Shown here piece by piece: positions 56,106 to 64,000 of a stretch of 64,000 nucleotides of DNA (its first letter is position 1; each line of letters begins with the position of its first letter). A model generated the notes under the pieces. It searched no databases. It had not been told where the DNA came from and saw nothing but the letters and a program-made list of their open reading frames with translations. Source of the DNA: a virus (Duplodnaviria; Caudoviricetes). Both the position numbers and the translations under genes were made by a program. The stretch is taken from positions 13,060-77,059 of IMG/VR virus record IMGVR_UViG_3300032234_001062. The stretch is one strand, 5' to 3'.

Positions 56106-57934
56106 TGGAAGAAGAATTATTTAGAGAAAAATATAACTCAGATTTATTAGTATCTGAGAAAATGTGTGAAGAAATAGATTATAAACTCCGTCAATTAGGT
56201 AATTTAGAAAATCCAAACATTAATACAGTTAAAGCTGTAGTAAAAGAATGTACTAACGTAGAAGAAAAAAGTGCTTTTTTATTTTTTACTCGAGCTTTTG
56301 GATACGTTCCTCATCCTACAAGAGGAAAAGTATCTATGTCAGAGTCTATGTATAATTGGCAAAAAATTGCAGCTGTAAAATTTTTAACTGGAACTCGATT
56401 TATTTCAAAAAAAGTTCGTCAAATTGGTGCTACAACTTTTGTTTCTACTTATTTTTTATGGAGAGCACTCTTTTACGGAAACACTAGTTCTTTTATTCTT
56501 TCATTAGGTTCAAGAGAATCAACAGACGTTCTCAGCAGAGTAACTTTTATGTATAATAATTTACCTAATTGGTTAAAAACTCCTCTTTTAGAAGGCGCAA
56601 AAACAAGTATTAAATTTAAGAATAATAGTAAATTTACTGCTTTGCCTGGAACTCCTGACGCTCTTAGAGGACGTTCTTCTACTTCTGTTATTTTAGATGA
56701 GTTTGCTTTTTTAAATAATGCAGATAAAATACTTTCGGCAGCTGTTCCATCTCTTTCTATGGGATTTTTAACTCCTTTTTCTAATATGTCTTTACCATCT
56801 CAATTATTTATTATTTCAACATTTCCTTTAGTAGAAAGTGATAATAATGAATATGTACGTTTATATAAAAATTCATTACATGGAGAATCGGACTTTAAAA
56901 TACTTTCAGTATTTACAGATGATATTCCAGAATATAATGATAAAAATTGGCGAAAAAGCATGTTAGAAACTTTAGGACCTAAAAAATATGCTGTAGAAAT
57001 AGAAGGAAGAATGAATTCATCTATGGATAATTCATTTTTTCCAGAATATGTTATCGCTGAATTAACTCCAACTAAACCAATAAGAACAGATTTTTTAAAA
57101 CAAGAAGATGTAGATGAAGAAGGATATGCTAAAAATATAGATTTATTAGTAAAGGCTAAAGAAAACTTTGAACCTTCTATAGGTTATATAAAAAGTCTTT
57201 GGGTCTGGAAAGATCCTTTAGAAAAAAAAGAATATGGTATTACTGCTGACGTATCTGCGGGCGTTGGTAGTGATTACAGTGCTATTCATGTTATTGATTT
57301 AGAAACTTCTGAACAAGTAGCAGAATTTTACTCTAATAAAGTATCTTTAGAAGATTTTAAAATGATAATTAAAACATTATCTGAGTATTATAATAATGCT
57401 AAATTATCAATAGAAAGAAACTCTTTAGGTGCTCCTCTTTGTTCTTATTTTTATGAAACGTTAAAATATGAAAACTTTTATTTACATAGAAGATCAAAAA
57501 GTACTTATGTAGAAGGTTTTCCTGTTACTAGTGGAAATAAAGGTAGCATGTTAGCAAATTTACAAGGTGCATTAACAAATAAAGAAATAAAAATTAATTC
57601 TATAAGAACTATAAATGAAATTAGAACTTTTGCTTTTTTAGATAATGGAAAATTAGGTGCTAGTCAAGGTAATCACGATGATTTAGTTATGTCTTTAGCG
57701 CAATTTTGTTTTTTAAGAGAAATATTTTTTAATACTCAAATCATTTCTGACTATGGAGATGATTTTATGCAAAGAGTAGAACAAGAAGCAGAATTAATTA
57801 GAAAAAAACACTATTCTAATGATATTTTTAGCTCCGATCCTTCTAGAGAAAGAGAAATGAAAAATTTAATAGCAGGTTATTCTGTTGATCCTGTTTCTTT
57901 AGAACAGTGGAGACAAATACACGATGATTTTTAA
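56105..57934 (+). CDS. terL: Terminase large subunit (T4 gp17-like)
   Basis: 609 aa. KKVRQIGATT (Walker A region), VILDEFAF (Walker B), GITADVSAGVGSDYSA, IERN, HDDLVMSLA (RNase H-like nuclease). No intein seen. Confidence 0.96.
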   Translation: MEEELFREKYNSDLLVSEKMCEEIDYKLRQLGNLENPNINTVKAVVKECTNVEEKSAFLFFTRAFGYVPHPTRGKVSMSESMYNWQKIAAVKFLTGTRFISKKVRQIGATTFVSTYFLWRALFYGNTSSFILSLGSRESTDVLSRVTFMYNNLPNWLKTPLLEGAKTSIKFKNNSKFTALPGTPDALRGRSSTSVILDEFAFLNNADKILSAAVPSLSMGFLTPFSNMSLPSQLFIISTFPLVESDNNEYVRLYKNSLHGESDFKILSVFTDDIPEYNDKNWRKSMLETLGPKKYAVEIEGRMNSSMDNSFFPEYVIAELTPTKPIRTDFLKQEDVDEEGYAKNIDLLVKAKENFEPSIGYIKSLWVWKDPLEKKEYGITADVSAGVGSDYSAIHVIDLETSEQVAEFYSNKVSLEDFKMIIKTLSEYYNNAKLSIERNSLGAPLCSYFYETLKYENFYLHRRSKSTYVEGFPVTSGNKGSMLANLQGALTNKEIKINSIRTINEIRTFAFLDNGKLGASQGNHDDLVMSLAQFCFLREIFFNTQIISDYGDDFMQRVEQEAELIRKKHYSNDIFSSDPSREREMKNLIAGYSVDPVSLEQWRQIHDDF

Positions 57935-58524
57935 CGATATAATTTATTTTTAACAGTTAAAATATTTAATAGAATTTCTAATTTTTCATGTGGAATAGTA
58001 AAATAAAAGGATAAAGAATCTACAACTTCATTAATAATATTTTTTATTTCTCTTATATCATCAACAGATAATTGATTATTTTTTATTTTTTGTTTTATTA
58101 AAGTAGAATTTTCATCCCAAAATTCAATAAATTCTATTACTATTTTATTATGATTATATTTTTTTAAAGTTTTTACTATACTATTTATTTGTTCTATTAT
58201 AGATGTTTCATCGTTATTATTTTGATTATATTCTATTTCTTGAATAATTTTATTTTTATATGTTAATAAATTTAATAGAGTTTCTAATTTTTGATGTGGA
58301 ATAGTCCATTTTAAAATCAAAGAATTAATAACTTGAGAACTAATTTCTTTGATTTCATTTCTATCTTTTTCTGATAATTCATTTTTTTTAATTTTATCTT
58401 TTATTAAAGATAAATTATCTTGCCATGATTTTAAAAAATTCATCACTAAAGAATCATCTTTATAATCTTTAATTAAAATTATTATTTCATTTATTTGATT
58501 TTCGATTGATTCTTTATTGTTCAT
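57931..58524 (-). CDS. Hypothetical protein made of two ~95-aa tandem domains
   Basis: Start ATG 58524 (MNNKESIENQ) preferred. Halves end in WTIPHQKLETLLNLLTYKNK and FTIPHEKLEILLNILTVKNK. Confidence 0.75.
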   Translation of the reverse strand: MNNKESIENQINEIIILIKDYKDDSLVMNFLKSWQDNLSLIKDKIKKNELSEKDRNEIKEISSQVINSLILKWTIPHQKLETLLNLLTYKNKIIQEIEYNQNNNDETSIIEQINSIVKTLKKYNHNKIVIEFIEFWDENSTLIKQKIKNNQLSVDDIREIKNIINEVVDSLSFYFTIPHEKLEILLNILTVKNKLYR

Positions 58525-58525
58525 T

Positions 58526-58900
58526 TTAAAATGATGTTCCTCTATCACAATTAGATATTACAATTCCTTTTTTACATTCAAAAAAAGTATTAGTAAATTC
58601 TAAAACTTTGTTAGGATCATATTCAGCACAACTAAATACATCTAAATAAATTTCACCAATGTTTTCAGCAAAATGAGCAGTGATTGAGGAGGTTTCTATT
58701 GCTTGTAAAACAGTAATTCCATATAGTTTTTCATCATGTGAGGCAAATTTTTCAATCCAAGTTTCACCATACATTTTCATATTAATTTCATCACATAATT
58801 CTTTAATATATTGTTTAACAATTTCAGGATTACTGATTTTATCTTTATTTGCTCCATTAAAATCAAAAGCACAAGATAAACCCCAAGCTTTTTTATTCAT
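58526..58900 (-). CDS. Pyruvoyl-dependent S-adenosylmethionine decarboxylase homologue, divergent type
   Basis: 124 aa. GITVLQAIETSSITAHF...YLDVFSC retains the autocleavage Ser, His and Cys. Confidence 0.85.
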   Translation of the reverse strand: MNKKAWGLSCAFDFNGANKDKISNPEIVKQYIKELCDEINMKMYGETWIEKFASHDEKLYGITVLQAIETSSITAHFAENIGEIYLDVFSCAEYDPNKVLEFTNTFFECKKGIVISNCDRGTSF

Positions 58901-59261
58901 CTAATAAACCTCTACTTATTCTAGATATTTTTTTTATTTTTGGTCTTAATACTTGTACAATAAAATCTATTCCATCAAAAGGTTTACATGTTTTTCCACA
59001 TGTAAAAATATCAAAATGTCCATAACCTATTTCAGGATAAGTATGAACGCTACAATGAGATTCTGATAGAATCCAAATACCTGTAACTCCTTGAGGTTCA
59101 AATTTATGATCAATATATTTAAGAGGGGTTGCACCGCTAAATATTGAAGCGTTTCTTAATAATTCTTGTATTTTTTCAGGATCGTTTAATATGTTATTTT
59201 CACAATCCCATAAATCAGCAATAATGTGTTCTCCCTCAGAAAGGAAATCTTCTTTCTCCAC
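58893..59261 (-). CDS. speD: S-adenosylmethionine decarboxylase proenzyme (SpeD/SpeH type)
   Basis: 122 aa, GTG start. HKFEPQGVTGIWILSESHCSVHTYPE...DIFTCG is the canonical motif. Confidence 0.92.
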   Translation of the reverse strand: MEKEDFLSEGEHIIADLWDCENNILNDPEKIQELLRNASIFSGATPLKYIDHKFEPQGVTGIWILSESHCSVHTYPEIGYGHFDIFTCGKTCKPFDGIDFIVQVLRPKIKKISRISRGLLDE

Positions 59262-59584: not shown

Positions 59585-60121
59585 TTACTGACACTCTTTT
59601 TTTTCTATCTCATTTATTTTATTTTTTTCATTTAAATCAAATTTTAATTCATATTTATTTACTATTTTAATGAATGTTTTTACATATAAACAGCGATTAT
59701 AAGGAGGCATCCACTTATCTGGACCCTTAGAACCTTTACTACGATTACTATAAACAGATAATAGAACTAAATGATGTTCATCTGAATAATTATTAGCGAA
59801 ATCATTTCTTTGTTTATCAGTCCATTGATCAGCTCCATGTTTATATGCCCACTTTAATGGAACTGTATGATCCACATCTAATCTTTCTGGTTCATCAAAA
59901 TATTTATTTTCCCAAATAGAATACCATCTACCACTTAATATATTACATTTTTTAGAGTCCATAGTTACCATATCTTTTGAATTATCAATTAAAATATGTT
60001 CTCTAACAGTAATACATCCTCTAACAGTATTCCATCCTTCTCCAAATTTATCACGAGAATACTTTTCTTGTCCAAAAATTGAACAAGAAAATAGTAAAAT
60101 CAGAATTATTATTTTTTTCAT
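59585..60121 (-). CDS. HNH endonuclease (DUF1524 / GmrSD C-terminal type) with N-terminal signal peptide
   Basis: LDVDHTVPL.WAY.HGA..W....R.DFAN...L...S...NRSKG.KGP..W.PP. ATG 60121 gives MKKIIILILLFSCSIFG|QE. Confidence 0.85.
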   Translation of the reverse strand: MKKIIILILLFSCSIFGQEKYSRDKFGEGWNTVRGCITVREHILIDNSKDMVTMDSKKCNILSGRWYSIWENKYFDEPERLDVDHTVPLKWAYKHGADQWTDKQRNDFANNYSDEHHLVLLSVYSNRSKGSKGPDKWMPPYNRCLYVKTFIKIVNKYELKFDLNEKNKINEIEKKECQ

Positions 60122-60138
60122 TATAATTATATATTTAT

Positions 60139-61338
60139 TTATGTCCACTGTTTTTGTTTAAAATTATCTCCATAGATAACTTGACTTCCACTAGATGTTG
60201 TTTTTCCTTCTACATAATCGCGAGCAAAAGATGTCCAATCAGTCGCTGTATTAACTGGAACGTTTTGAAAAACAGCATTATAATACTCATTCTGTAATTT
60301 AAAATCGTGTGGTAATCCCATTAAATACATATGTTCACGAAGAGTTAAATAACGATCTTCACTTGGATGAATCATGTTAGGAGCTCTCATAGTTATAGCA
60401 TTATAAGCTTCTCCATTACGATAAAAATGAGGTGAAGAATTCCACCAACCTTTTCCTATTGAGATTTTATATTTAGCCCATTCAATATGCTTAATTTCTT
60501 TTTCATATTCTTTTTTATCTTTATAAAATTCGATAAAATCATCTTGTAAACCTATTTCAAATAAATAATATTCTAAAGAAACTATTTTTTGTTTTTTAGA
60601 CTTAGAACTCATTACATCTCGCCAATTTGTTCCATACTTTTCTAAATAATATTTATAATAAACATTATCTTTAAGTTGTTCTTTCATAATAGAAAGAGAA
60701 TTTTCTGCTGTTGAACTATAATTAGCAAATTCACCCTCTAAATAGTCTTTAGGAGTTTTATGTGTTCTATTATACCAATTAAAATTAGGAGCGTGTTCTG
60801 AATCCCAGAAAAAGGCAAAAGATCTTTTACGATTCTGTGGCAAACCATGTAAAGTTGAACCTGTATAAACAAAAGATGTACTGTAACCATATTTTTTTCC
60901 TATATTAATTGCTTGTTCTCTTACCCACCTTCCAAAGTTTTGCATTAATCCTGGTGCATTTTCGAATATCATAACCTTAGGTCTAATATCTCTTAAAATC
61001 AATGAAGACGCTAAATACATCCATTTATTAGAACTATAATCATTTTCTTCATTAGCAGTATGATTACCAATAGTTGGATTTAATCTTGATAATCCAGCGC
61101 ATGGTGGTACAGCACTAACTATCATTGTATTTTTAAATAAATCATCTTTTAAAGAAAGATTATCTATATTTTCATTATCAAGTGTTCTAAATGGTACACC
61201 ATTATAATATTGTTTAAAATTTTCTTCATTAGTTTTAAAATCATTCCAAGAAATAGCCCAACTAGGAGCCTCTTCTAAAGCACGATGAGCTCCTATTGCC
61301 ATTCCACCAATTAATGGTATTATTACGCCATGTTTCAT
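60139..61338 (-). CDS. C5-cytosine DNA methyltransferase-like enzyme with atypical SAM-binding motifs
   Basis: 399 aa. Motifs IV PPC, VI FENAPGL, VIII PQNRKR and IX RYLTLRE...MGLPHDF are intact. Motif I reads IPLIGG and motif X reads QNVPV. Confidence 0.85.
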   Translation of the reverse strand: MKHGVIIPLIGGMAIGAHRALEEAPSWAISWNDFKTNEENFKQYYNGVPFRTLDNENIDNLSLKDDLFKNTMIVSAVPPCAGLSRLNPTIGNHTANEENDYSSNKWMYLASSLILRDIRPKVMIFENAPGLMQNFGRWVREQAINIGKKYGYSTSFVYTGSTLHGLPQNRKRSFAFFWDSEHAPNFNWYNRTHKTPKDYLEGEFANYSSTAENSLSIMKEQLKDNVYYKYYLEKYGTNWRDVMSSKSKKQKIVSLEYYLFEIGLQDDFIEFYKDKKEYEKEIKHIEWAKYKISIGKGWWNSSPHFYRNGEAYNAITMRAPNMIHPSEDRYLTLREHMYLMGLPHDFKLQNEYYNAVFQNVPVNTATDWTSFARDYVEGKTTSSGSQVIYGDNFKQKQWT

Positions 61339-62447
61339 TATAATATTTCCTCTATAGATAATTTTATTTCTTTTTCTGAAGAAATAACATATTTATCAAT
61401 TAATTTTTGTAAAAAATTTACATCCTTTAATTTATTAGAAATATCAAAAGAATCATCTATTAATAATTCATTTAAAATATTTTGATCTATAATTCCTTCT
61501 TTTGTATAAACAGAATTATGTATATAAGGTATAACTCCTCTAGTTAAAGCCTCCATAAATCTAGGTGAAAAAGCTTTTTTATCATATCCTGGTAATATTA
61601 CAGTATATTTTGATTTTTTTAAATAATTTATATAATCTTCTTTTGTGATATTAGTATAAATTTCTTTATATTTATCTTGAAGAAAAACATTACTATTAGG
61701 AAGAGAATAAAAAGTATCATATAATTTTTGTATATATTTTCTATCTGGAGTTAGACATGTAAAACCTATACACCAATCATATTTTTTCTCTTCATTAATT
61801 TCTAAATGATCTGTATGATAAATTTTAAGAAAAGGATGACCTTTAGTTTTGAATAATTGAGAATCATAAATAAAAAATCTACGATAATCTACTCCATTCA
61901 TTAATTCTACATCACTATGATTACTTTCTTGTGGATCATGAAGAAAATGATTCCAAGGTATATTCATAGTGCTAACAAAAGCATAATGATTTAAAAATTT
62001 TCTAATCATTTTTTGAGCACTAATAAAATTAATTAGTTTATTTTCTTTTATTGTTTTATTTAAATTTTTAGGTTTACGAAATTTAAAAGCTGAAGTCATA
62101 ATACCAAATATTTCAACAAAAGAAACAGCATTAATAGAATTTTTTAATTCAGTATATCCATTTTTACTTTCATCAATAAAACCTTGCCAAGTTTGTATTT
62201 CTTTTTTTTGATTCATTATTAAAATATCAAAAATATTATTCAAATAATCATCATGTCTTGTTACGTGATTTTGATTTTCAAAATCTGTTAATAATGCTAA
62301 ATTATAACGATCTTTAAATTTAGTTAACCAATAAGTATAAGTAATATATGAATGTTTAGATGCATTTCTTAAATTAAGCGGTGACCCAAAACCAACTACA
62401 ATAGTTGGTTTTTTTTCATCATATGTATTTTTTTTTACTGTTTTCAT
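61338..62447 (-). CDS. GT-B glycosyltransferase, T4 beta-glucosyltransferase-like C-terminal half
   Basis: 369 aa. KKYDW.IGF....R...Y.NYLKKSKYTVILPGYD..FSPRFMEAL..GVIP parallels the BGT KYD...R...ITLRVWE region (judged by eye). Confidence 0.65.
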   Translation of the reverse strand: MKTVKKNTYDEKKPTIVVGFGSPLNLRNASKHSYITYTYWLTKFKDRYNLALLTDFENQNHVTRHDDYLNNIFDILIMNQKKEIQTWQGFIDESKNGYTELKNSINAVSFVEIFGIMTSAFKFRKPKNLNKTIKENKLINFISAQKMIRKFLNHYAFVSTMNIPWNHFLHDPQESNHSDVELMNGVDYRRFFIYDSQLFKTKGHPFLKIYHTDHLEINEEKKYDWCIGFTCLTPDRKYIQKLYDTFYSLPNSNVFLQDKYKEIYTNITKEDYINYLKKSKYTVILPGYDKKAFSPRFMEALTRGVIPYIHNSVYTKEGIIDQNILNELLIDDSFDISNKLKDVNFLQKLIDKYVISSEKEIKLSIEEIL

Positions 62448-63436
62448 TAATCTTCCTTATTAAATTGTTTTTTAATCCAATTATAAGTTTCTTTCATTCC
62501 TGTTTCTAATGGAACACTAGGCTCCCAATCAATTAATTTTTTTATTAAAGTATTATCACTATTTCTACTTTTAACTCCTTGAGGAGCATCTAATTTATAT
62601 TGATAAGTAGATTCAGTAATTTGTGTTTTAGAGATTTTCATAACTAAATCATGTAAATATTTAATTGTAACTCCTTGATTAGAACCTAAATTAATTGGAC
62701 CTTGAATTTTATTATTCACTAATTTATGTATTCCAGTAATAGCATCTTCTATATACATAAAAGATCTTCTTTGATTTCCATCTCCCCAAATTTCTATGTT
62801 ATCTTTTTTATTATTAATATATTCTAAAACTTTTCTAATTGAAGCTGCTGGTGCTTTTTCTCTTCCATCTTTCCATGATCCATGTGGACCATATACATTA
62901 TGAAAACGAGCAATTGTAACAGGAACACCAAATTCTTTATTTAAGTAACGATAAAGTTCTTCACAGTATAGTTTATTTAGACCATAAAGTAAATCTGGAT
63001 GTGCTGGCCAAGCGTCTCCTTCTTTTAACATAATATCCTTAGAATCATCACTTTGAAGAAAATCATTATAAACACAAGCTGATGAAGAATAAAATACATG
63101 TGGCTTATTTCCACTTTTTAAAATACTTTCAATTAAATTAATATGAATCTTTCCTGATAAACCAGTCATTAGATGATTATTTTCACAATACCCAATTCCA
63201 CCCATGTCCTCAGCAAGATTATAAATAATATTAACGCCTTGAGTTACTGAATCAGTAATTTGAGGATTATTCATATCTCCTTTTTTACCGTGATAATTAT
63301 CAGCCTTTTTAAATCTTTGATACCATTCATTTTTAGATTTTTTATCATAAGCTTTAACTTCATAACCTAAATCTAAACAACTCTTTACAAGATGTCCACC
63401 AATAAATCCACCCGCTCCAGTAATTGATACTTTCAT
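62447..63436 (-). CDS. GDP-mannose 3,5-epimerase-like NAD-dependent epimerase
   Basis: 329 aa. GAGGFIG, NLAEDMGGIG, SSSACVY, AWPA, YGLNK, RFHNVYGP.G.W..GREKAPAA, WGDG.Q.RSF and RNSDN all match the GME family. Confidence 0.9.
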   Translation of the reverse strand: MKVSITGAGGFIGGHLVKSCLDLGYEVKAYDKKSKNEWYQRFKKADNYHGKKGDMNNPQITDSVTQGVNIIYNLAEDMGGIGYCENNHLMTGLSGKIHINLIESILKSGNKPHVFYSSSACVYNDFLQSDDSKDIMLKEGDAWPAHPDLLYGLNKLYCEELYRYLNKEFGVPVTIARFHNVYGPHGSWKDGREKAPAASIRKVLEYINNKKDNIEIWGDGNQRRSFMYIEDAITGIHKLVNNKIQGPINLGSNQGVTIKYLHDLVMKISKTQITESTYQYKLDAPQGVKSRNSDNTLIKKLIDWEPSVPLETGMKETYNWIKKQFNKED

Positions 63437-63893: not shown

Positions 63894-64000
63894 GTTTTTG
63901 CATCTCACTATAATAAATTTCATATTTTAATTTTGTAATTTGAGGTAATAAATCATAAATAGATTGACTCTTTAATTTGATTGTATTTTCATATCCCCAA
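63886..64000 (-). CDS. 3' end of a hypothetical protein entering from the right edge
   Basis: Open frame ...WGYENTIKLKSQSIYDLLPQITKLKYEIYYSEMQKHE* ending at 63886, coupled to the next ATG. Confidence 0.6.
   Translation of the reverse strand, partial: WGYENTIKLKSQSIYDLLPQITKLKYEIYYSEMQKHE

Follow-up and report, generated by a model that had tools for sequence, protein, structure and literature searches.

A coupled epimerase, glycosyltransferase and methylase-fold enzyme in a jumbo phage: a candidate system for glycosylating 5-hydroxymethylcytosine in DNA

Glycosylated cytosines let phages evade restriction enzymes and CRISPR, and they have given enzymes for epigenome mapping. The 5-hydroxymethylcytosine (5hmC) pathway of phage T4 relies on gp42, a dCMP hydroxymethylase, and on an alpha- and a beta-glucosyltransferase. 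In other phages, glycosyltransferases (GTs) often require a partner epimerase to glycosylate 5hmC, and the GT-B types among them are structurally similar to T4 beta-glucosyltransferase (BGT) and mostly associated with thymidylate synthase (TS) homologues (bioRxiv 10.1101/2023.12.21.572611). Phages with pathways that combine a C5-methyltransferase (C5-MT), TET and a GT also exist (PMC8256090), and the DNA of phage HY126 carries arabinosylated 5-hydroxycytosine (PMC13326640). Here we analyze three adjoining genes, encoding an epimerase, a GT and a C5-methylase-fold enzyme, on a viral contig from IMG/VR (record IMGVR_UViG_3300032234_001062). By analogy, the system appears to be of a kind already known, in which phages pair epimerases with BGT-like, TS-associated GT-B enzymes that act on 5hmC. 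The reading we favor, with some reservation, is that this trio glycosylates 5hmC made before replication, providing the sugar supply and the transfer step for cytosine hypermodification in a jumbo phage.

The operon and the predicted sugar transfer

The window, meaning the whole stretch of 64,000 nucleotides that was analyzed, makes up the final 64 kb of a contig of 77,059 bp and ends where the contig ends. CheckV estimates the contig to be ~33% complete, and the window has a GC content of ~25% and encodes a T4-type large terminase along with several very large proteins. As the contig is collinear with bases ~57,400-125,600 of G001, a complete phage genome of 290,274 bp with direct terminal repeats, the phage in question is a jumbo phage. 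The three genes, whose products are labeled P0003 (epimerase), P0001 (the GT of the middle gene) and P0002 (methylase-fold enzyme), all lie on the minus strand (Table 1), and both of their junctions read TAATG on that strand, a 1-nt stop/start overlap that bears out the translational coupling described in a first-pass annotation of the sequence. The trio is also co-conserved in relatives: G001 shares it with two further contigs, a viral one of 47 kb and one from JGI of 327 kb, and its proteins are 69-87% identical to their G001 counterparts. A megablast search of the region against GenBank phages gave no match.

Table 1. Coordinates in the window of the trio and of the genes that follow it on the same strand
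Feature	Position	Strand	Basis
GDP-mannose 3',5'-epimerase (GME) orthologue, 329 aa (P0003)	62447..63436	-	PF01370, 129 bits; phrog_540
GT-B glycosyltransferase, 369 aa, T4 BGT-like fold, weak exostosin/GT47-like sequence (P0001)	61338..62447	-	fold and context
C5-cytosine methyltransferase-fold enzyme, 399 aa, virus-specific clade (P0002)	60139..61338	-	PF00145, 78 bits (cut-off 22)
HNH nuclease, GmrSD C-terminal-domain related, 178-187 aa	59585..60148	-	PF07510 GmrSD_C, 34 bits
S-adenosylmethionine decarboxylase (AdoMetDC), class 1b, SESH self-processing site	58893..59261	-	PF02675, 113 bits; TIGR03330, 120 bits
Divergent second AdoMetDC paralogue, site ETSS	58526..58900	-	PF02675, 64 bits
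205-aa protein whose gene closes the minus-strand string and borders on that for terminase	57931..58548	-	open reading frame

Among solved structures, the best relative of the epimerase is Arabidopsis GME (2c59; 1e-76, 262 bits, residues 1-328), and the next enzyme class, UDP-glucuronate decarboxylase, reaches 94 bits only. The catalytic residues of GME are Cys145, Tyr174, Lys178 and Lys217 in Arabidopsis numbering, and the alignment with 2c59 keeps the SSAC, YGLxKL and GREKAPAA motifs that hold the catalytic Cys, the Tyr-x3-Lys pair and the second Lys. Judged by full-length homology far above that to other short-chain dehydrogenase/reductase (SDR) sugar enzymes, the protein is a GME orthologue, as had been suspected at first pass, and it is predicted to make GDP-L-galactose, GDP-L-gulose or both. 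Identity to the G001 gene is 87%. Because the epimerase is GME-like, the sugar donated is probably not D-glucose, which agrees with the earlier proposal of some other sugar; in the literature we found no report of a GME-type donor route for DNA.

The GT is assigned through its fold and its gene context. P0001 itself has no Pfam, NCBIfam or PHROG match, the T4-Gluco-transf family included. An exhaustive HMMER search collected 167 distant relatives, of which 76 were used for alignment; weak matches to Exostosin_GT47 (PF03016) occur in 35 of these 76 (best E 1.6e-6) and matches to Glyco_trans_1_2 in nine, and the homologue in the cultured Pseudoalteromonas phage vB_Psh_XG4 scores 18 bits against PF03016, under the cut-off of 33. 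A sequence profile of the 76 homologues run against the PDB hit no solved glycosyltransferase, only noise. The AlphaFold model built from the same 76 sequences, which replaced an earlier model from 10 close homologues (pLDDT 54), shows a GT-B fold at pLDDT 93.7. Aligned exhaustively against 48,161 representative solved chains, this model found T4 BGT (1c3j) at the top (Z 16.8, rmsd 4.0, 279/333 residues), followed at a distance of ~2.4 by the glycosyltransferase of phage HY126 (Z 14.4), while T4 alpha-glucosyltransferase (AGT) reached Z 13.1. Foldseek against the PDB placed generic GT-B enzymes ahead of BGT, the ranking by the exhaustive aligner being the clearer one. The description of the protein as BGT-like is thus true of its fold and not of its sequence family, because T4 BGT tops the fold search while family models fail. 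Three residues, R296, E299 and P307, are the same in every family member, and D171, E174 and R236 are almost invariant.

Gene context was surveyed in 20 viral loci of the P0001 family, seeded with the 10-sequence subset, the 76-sequence alignment being too divergent for this use. In 4 of the 20, two of them from the window's own clade, the GT adjoins a member of the viral clade of C5-methylase-fold enzymes to which P0002 belongs (the methylase clade), and in 13 of the remaining 16 it stands directly upstream of a TET-associated DNA glycosyltransferase (TAGT; PF20691, 140 bits). These TAGT-linked loci sit inside a T4-like replication module that runs from gp46/gp47 to gp45/gp44. Two more GT-methylase loci came from other look-ups, and vB_Psh_XG4 adds another. 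A P0001-family GT is found in a DNA context, either the methylase clade or TAGT and replication genes, in all 22 loci and in the cultured phage; a TS homologue lies within 10 kb in three of the methylase-adjacent loci, and the adjacency of GT and methylase holds down to 25-30% GT identity. This context agrees with a DNA acceptor, and we predict that P0001 is a DNA 5hmC glycosyltransferase. The initial view of the trio as a DNA-modification module is supported, and the GT-methylase pair recurs in distant phages.

Origin of the cytosine handle

The first-pass annotation had the trio itself create a handle at cytosine C5; having seen neither TET/JBP nor a dCMP hydroxymethylase in the window, it placed such a gene beyond base 64000 or else supposed a different, new route to the handle. 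The lack of a visible candidate holds for the whole contig, where, at 33% completeness, neither Tet_JBP (PF12851) nor TS has a match. Neither the C5-methylase as maker of the handle nor a handle gene beyond base 64000 is supported. G001 contains one TS-family gene, which precedes by ~6 kb the region corresponding to the start of the contig; from this position, the gene would lie off the other contig end and not beyond base 64000, where the contig stops. The best solved relative of the G001 TS homologue is the CMP hydroxymethylase MilA (2.4e-25), with T4 dCMP hydroxymethylase at 5e-12, and in E. coli ThyA positions it has Cys146, an Asp at both L143 and N177, and a retained Asp169. Published work on such enzymes ties Asp177 to cytosine specificity, an acidic residue at 143 to the hydroxymethyl product and Asn169 to 5-hydroxy-dCMP synthases (PMC13326640). 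By this residue signature the G001 enzyme is predicted to make 5-hydroxymethyl-dCMP, and since it keeps Asp169, the predicted handle is 5-hydroxymethyl rather than 5-hydroxy. G001 also has a dCMP deaminase and one dUTPase-family gene, and it has no Tet_JBP match.

Other genomes of the methylase clade were searched for the same two routes. A TS-family match is present in 25 of 48 whole methylase-clade records, and a divergent TS homologue in all four of the complete or nearly complete clade genomes (G001, G024, G034 and G010); canonical ThyA occurs additionally in four records, G024 and G010 among them. The hydroxymethylase signature was found in both genomes whose residues were read, G001 and G034 (locus L096). 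Tet_JBP had no match in 48 other methylase-clade records, three of them complete or nearly complete, in a search without a positive control; such a control was sought in five records, four TAGT-linked and one (L112) with both methylase and TS, and none turned up. Because the G001 TS homologue has the hydroxymethylase signature and no Tet_JBP match was found, the handle is most likely made before replication, as in T4, and the idea that the C5-methylase makes it is not supported.

These data suggest a model in which a TS-family enzyme, encoded outside the contig if the syntenic complete relative is a guide, would convert dCMP to 5-hydroxymethyl-dCMP, which would then be phosphorylated and incorporated at replication, as in T4. 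The GME orthologue, on the basis of its homology, would turn GDP-D-mannose into GDP-L-galactose or GDP-L-gulose. The BGT-fold GT-B enzyme, to judge from fold and context, would flip out 5hmC from the duplex and put the L-hexose on its hydroxyl, and DNA modified in this way would be shielded from host nucleases. Most simply, the methylase-fold enzyme would methylate whatever cytosines have not been replaced; given that its motif I is altered and that C5-substituted DNA seems to offer it no substrate, it may also carry out some other reaction.

The methylase-fold enzyme and competing explanations

P0002 matches the C5-methylase family PF00145 (Table 1) and scores 47 against TIGR00675, below the cut-off of 101. 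Its clade comprises at least 584 viral loci in IMG/VR, and the ESM Atlas clusters nearest to it are 90-100% viral. Among 52 clade members, no variation occurs at P79-C80, E126-N127-A128-P129, Q168/R170/R172, R334 and N359-P361, and almost none at E335, Q358 and V360. In P0002 the catalytic motifs IV, VI and VIII are present as PCAGLS, ENAPGL and QNRKR, motif IX as R334-E335, and two substitutions, PCQ to PCA and ENV to ENA, are fixed in the clade. To judge from its sequence, the enzyme retains all the residues that a covalent attack at C6 of cytosine requires. The S-adenosylmethionine (SAM)-binding loop, motif I, is canonically FxGxG; in this clade it is IIPLIGG, in which P8, L9, G11 and G12 are invariant and the Phe and first Gly are replaced. 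Where the canonical spacing would put the ribose-binding Glu of motif II, clade members carry Ser/Thr30 and then Tyr/Trp31, an alignment to 3g7u sets the motif II Glu of that protein opposite Ala28, and a conserved D/E38 stands eight residues past the expected position. The clade profile matches M.HhaI and M.HaeIII significantly only from motif IV onward, and its proteins, of ~400 residues, are 30-40% identical over the whole length, including the region that is usually target-variable. The first-pass impression that this enzyme is atypical was sound: a C5-methylase fold is kept, and translationally coupled to DNA GTs, in phages that apparently already substitute C5. Our literature searches brought up no paper describing C5-methylases within TS-type clusters and no discussion of the conserved pairing of this clade with them, and neither the MetaGPA paper nor the 5-hydroxycytosine paper mentions methyltransferases.

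To place the clade in context, we surveyed up to 10 kb on each side of the best 80 of the at least 584 viral loci, ranked by similarity to the query; genes were clustered and the largest clusters named, and many of the contigs are short fragments. TS homologues were the most frequent of the named neighbors (33 of the 80 loci, all with Asp143, Asp169 and Asp177), followed by SDR sugar epimerases or dehydratases (31), dCMP deaminase (25), Glyco_trans_1_2-like GTs (23) and T4 AGT homologues (22; PF11440, 247 bits). NTP-transferases were found in 15 loci, GT2 enzymes and APH-like kinases in 14 each, HAD phosphatases in 13, a 171-aa dUTPase/DCD-family protein in 12, GT1 enzymes in 11, DegT sugar aminotransferases in 10 and a protein resembling 5-hydroxymethyldeoxyuridine (5-hmdU) DNA kinase in eight. 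Immediately upstream of the methylase stands AGT in 19 loci and an SDR epimerase in 17, and T4-type replisome genes surround these clusters. Such a survey had been suggested at first pass as a way to find TET or TS-like partners, and it yielded the latter in quantity; for the former, the 48 records gave no Tet_JBP match in the search without a positive control.

Several clusters have features of their own. The protein with a 5-hmdU DNA kinase helical domain (PF18723) is exemplified by L096:8538-9983, with seven similar loci, lies directly upstream of the methylase in three and hints at phosphate activation of a hydroxymethyl pyrimidine in these clusters. At L022:3263-4321, a radical SAM/SPASM enzyme stands between a P0001-family GT and an AGT-like GT, and a methylase-clade gene, an RmlD-like SDR and an NTP-transferase follow, in what looks like a richer hypermodification cluster. 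The JGI contig of P0244 (202,505 bp) has two tandem PF00145 genes (413 and 401 aa) flanked by a Glyco_trans_1_2 GT, a Gly_transf_sug GT, an exo/endo phosphatase and a TS homologue. Among cultured phages, the clade is carried by the S-TIM5 group of cyanophages and vB_Psh_XG4 (PP712099). In cyanophage S-TIM54 (OP053362), the gene at L105:6114-6956, annotated as ThyA, has Asp at the position of ThyA Asn177, so its product is predicted to act on dCMP and not dUMP; it lies 2 kb from a methylase-clade gene, beside a 559-aa protein without a family. In vB_Psh_XG4, one 6.5-kb string holds a TS homologue, an NTP-transferase/kinase fusion, a GT, a P0001-like GT and the methylase, and the TS homologue again shows the hydroxymethyl signature with Asp169 kept. 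The fusion (L110:1329-3008) joins an NTP-transferase to an APH-like kinase in 559 aa, the architecture of the bifunctional sugar kinase/pyrophosphorylase in the arabinosylation pathway of RB69, DLP3 and HY126.

Several observations weigh against our view that the trio glycosylates 5hmC made before replication. No TS homologue is on the contig itself, the enzyme being read from a relative whose GT is 71% identical, and by sequence P0001 falls outside every family of DNA GTs. Since C5-substituted cytosines offer a C5-methylase no obvious substrate, the model leaves one of the three genes unexplained. In G001, family-match searches found no dCTPase of the MazG, PRA-PH or dUTPase_2 type, so cytosine replacement may be incomplete; an incompletely replaced genome in which the methylase covers the remaining cytosines fits this lack of a recognizable dCTPase. 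Glycosylation of polysaccharides or proteins would also be consistent with the GT47-like matches and with the Rml and acyltransferase genes found upstream in G001. One possibility is that the epimerase and GT do not act on DNA but glycosylate, for example, proteins of the virion or glycans of the host envelope, and that the methylase is an adjacent orphan anti-restriction enzyme making 5-methylcytosine (5mC). The weak Exostosin_GT47 and Glyco_trans_1_2 matches are typical of polysaccharide enzymes, the RmlA-, RmlB- and RmlC-like genes with the acyltransferase resemble an O-antigen or capsule cassette, genes for terminase and structural proteins border on the operon, and in a published survey ~65% of the contigs with a phage GT lacked a base-modification enzyme next to it (bioRxiv 10.1101/2023.12.21.572611). 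We nevertheless regard such a target as improbable: the two best fold matches are both phage enzymes, namely the DNA glucosyltransferase T4 BGT and the HY126 glycosyltransferase, the DNA context of the family extends to every one of the 22 loci and the cultured phage, and the methylase stays adjacent even when GT identity has fallen to 25-30%.

The remaining explanations concern what the methylase-fold enzyme does. It could make the C5 handle after replication, either as 5mC for an unrecognized oxidase or by direct hydroxymethylation, with the GT then adding the sugar. Translational coupling of the GT and methylase genes would suit this scheme, as would the position of the clade beside glycosyltransferases of three different families in distant phages, a motif I that is altered around an invariant catalytic core, and the precedent of phages with C5-MT, TET and GT pathways (PMC8256090). 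We think it has little chance of being right, given that no Tet_JBP was found in G001 or 48 other clade records, in the search without a positive control, and that a divergent TS homologue is present in 4/4 complete or nearly complete clade genomes, with the signature in G001 and G034; a second handle-making enzyme would be redundant where such genomes already carry the TS homologue. The enzyme might instead not be a methyltransferase at all. Cys80 could attack C6 of a C5-substituted cytosine, or a non-methyl group could be coupled, in concert with the GT; possible reactions include exchange of the oxygen substituent of the 5-hydroxymethyl group, addition of an aldehyde or sugar carbon, and use of decarboxylated SAM, for which an AdoMetDC pair is at hand. 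According to the Klimasauskas laboratory, C5-methylases deprived of SAM can reportedly join aldehydes to cytosine, and thiols to 5hmC, in vitro. In keeping with a changed reaction, PC, ENA, QxRxR and RE are invariant, yet FxGxG has become IPLxGG, and Ser/Thr and an aromatic residue occupy the motif II Glu spacing; alignment to M.HhaI and M.HaeIII begins at motif IV; conservation at 30-40% takes in the usual variable region; and the clade occurs in phages that apparently pre-modify C5, some with a gp56-sized dUTPase/DCD-family gene nearby. The 5-hmdU-DNA-kinase-like gene near the methylase in eight loci, directly upstream in three, and the AdoMetDC pair downstream in three lineages point the same way. 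Against this, the Asn of motif X and the Pro and Ser of motif IV, which also contact SAM, are kept, the AdoMetDC linkage is confined to jumbo-phage lineages and absent from most of the 80 loci, and the acidic D/E38 is conserved just past the expected motif II site, so SAM binding may simply be rearranged. This particular chemistry, with Cys80 and the GT acting on a substituted cytosine, strikes us as unlikely, and any reaction other than methylation as only slightly less so. In its fullest form, the speculation would make the virus-only clade a new DNA-modifying enzyme working with the adjacent GT, and the product a cytosine bearing L-galactose or L-gulose, an L-hexose not yet reported in DNA; this too we hold doubtful.

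Flanking genes and comparison with known systems

Downstream of the trio, the HNH gene has a listed GTG start that overlaps the methylase gene and an alternative ATG at 60121. A promoter-like site, TGGACA-16-TATAAT at 60147-60120 (11/12, sigma-70-like), precedes the ATG, and coupling of the HNH gene to the methylase is doubtful because the ATG is the more likely start. Its position is the same in G001, and in L001 three small open reading frames part it from the methylase. The protein is probably a free-standing nuclease, possibly only a passenger, and may be a homing or host-DNA nuclease. Of the two tandem class-1b AdoMetDC paralogues, the second keeps the Ser of its processing site but has other residues in place of the Glu and His on either side, a pattern reminiscent of an inactive regulatory subunit or of altered specificity. 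Three jumbo-phage lineages, L001, G001 and the more distant L024, conserve the pair downstream of the methylase gene. We considered AdoMetDC as an obligate partner of the methylase and rejected this as a general rule, as it is nearby only in jumbo-phage lineages and absent in most of the 80 loci. The 205-aa protein that ends the gene string has no Pfam, NCBIfam, PHROG or PADLOC match. Upstream of the trio, past the end of the contig, G001 has a larger sugar island at 125,586-133,722 (L011:5586-13722), with genes for two proteins of 322 and 429 aa, an NT5C/HAD phosphatase, an RmlA-like NTP-transferase, an RmlB-like 4,6-dehydratase, an acyltransferase and an RmlC 3,5-epimerase. Its content suggests a second 6-deoxy-L-hexose and possibly acylated glycans.

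Three aspects of the system would go beyond the cases known so far. The GME-type epimerase points to an L-hexose on DNA, the GT belongs to a BGT-fold family that is invisible to sequence models and recurs in DNA-modification contexts, and an abundant, virus-specific clade of C5-methylase-fold enzymes occurs in TS-handle clusters that leave a C5-methylase little to act on. Explaining this clade would reveal either genomes that mix 5mC with glycosyl-5hmC or a new reaction of the methylase fold, and the cultured phage vB_Psh_XG4, which has the same cluster, makes the methylase question directly testable.

Set beside the T4 5hmC pathway, the operon and its relatives share a TS-family enzyme of the cytosine type, present in the syntenic genome, a GT whose best fold match is T4 BGT, and methylase-clade neighborhoods in which strong homologues of AGT occur along with dCMP deaminase and replisome genes like those of T4. 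They differ in that P0001 has no BGT or AGT sequence membership, that the GME-type epimerase implies a GDP-L-hexose donor whereas T4 uses UDP-glucose, that a C5-methylase-fold gene is coupled to the GT where T4 has none, and that no dCTPase was recognized in the relative G001.

The epimerase-dependent GT modules (bioRxiv 10.1101/2023.12.21.572611) and the C5-MT/TET/GT clusters (PMC8256090) resemble the present case in having an epimerase and a GT in one operon, together with accessory NTP-transferases, APH kinases and polyamine-related genes. Here, by contrast, no TET was found, the methylase co-occurs with a TS-type handle enzyme, and the epimerase is a GME orthologue rather than a UDP-sugar epimerase. 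The arabinosyl-5-hydroxycytosine pathway of RB69, DLP3 and HY126 (PMC13326640) likewise combines a MilA-related TS homologue, a phage-made NDP-sugar and GT-B DNA glycosyltransferases, and the HY126 glycosyltransferase is the second-best fold match of P0001. In contrast to that pathway, the TS homologue of our relative keeps Asp169, where Asn169 marks 5-hydroxy-dCMP synthases, and the sugar would come by way of GME and not from arabinose-5-phosphate; in vB_Psh_XG4, the kinase/NTP-transferase fusion is likewise paired with a TS homologue of the hydroxymethyl (Asp169) signature. Finally, the GME of plants and some bacteria is matched by the phage epimerase in full-length similarity (262 bits) and in the retention of the catalytic Cys, Tyr and two Lys, but here the enzyme is encoded by a phage, and its gene is coupled to that of a DNA-type GT.

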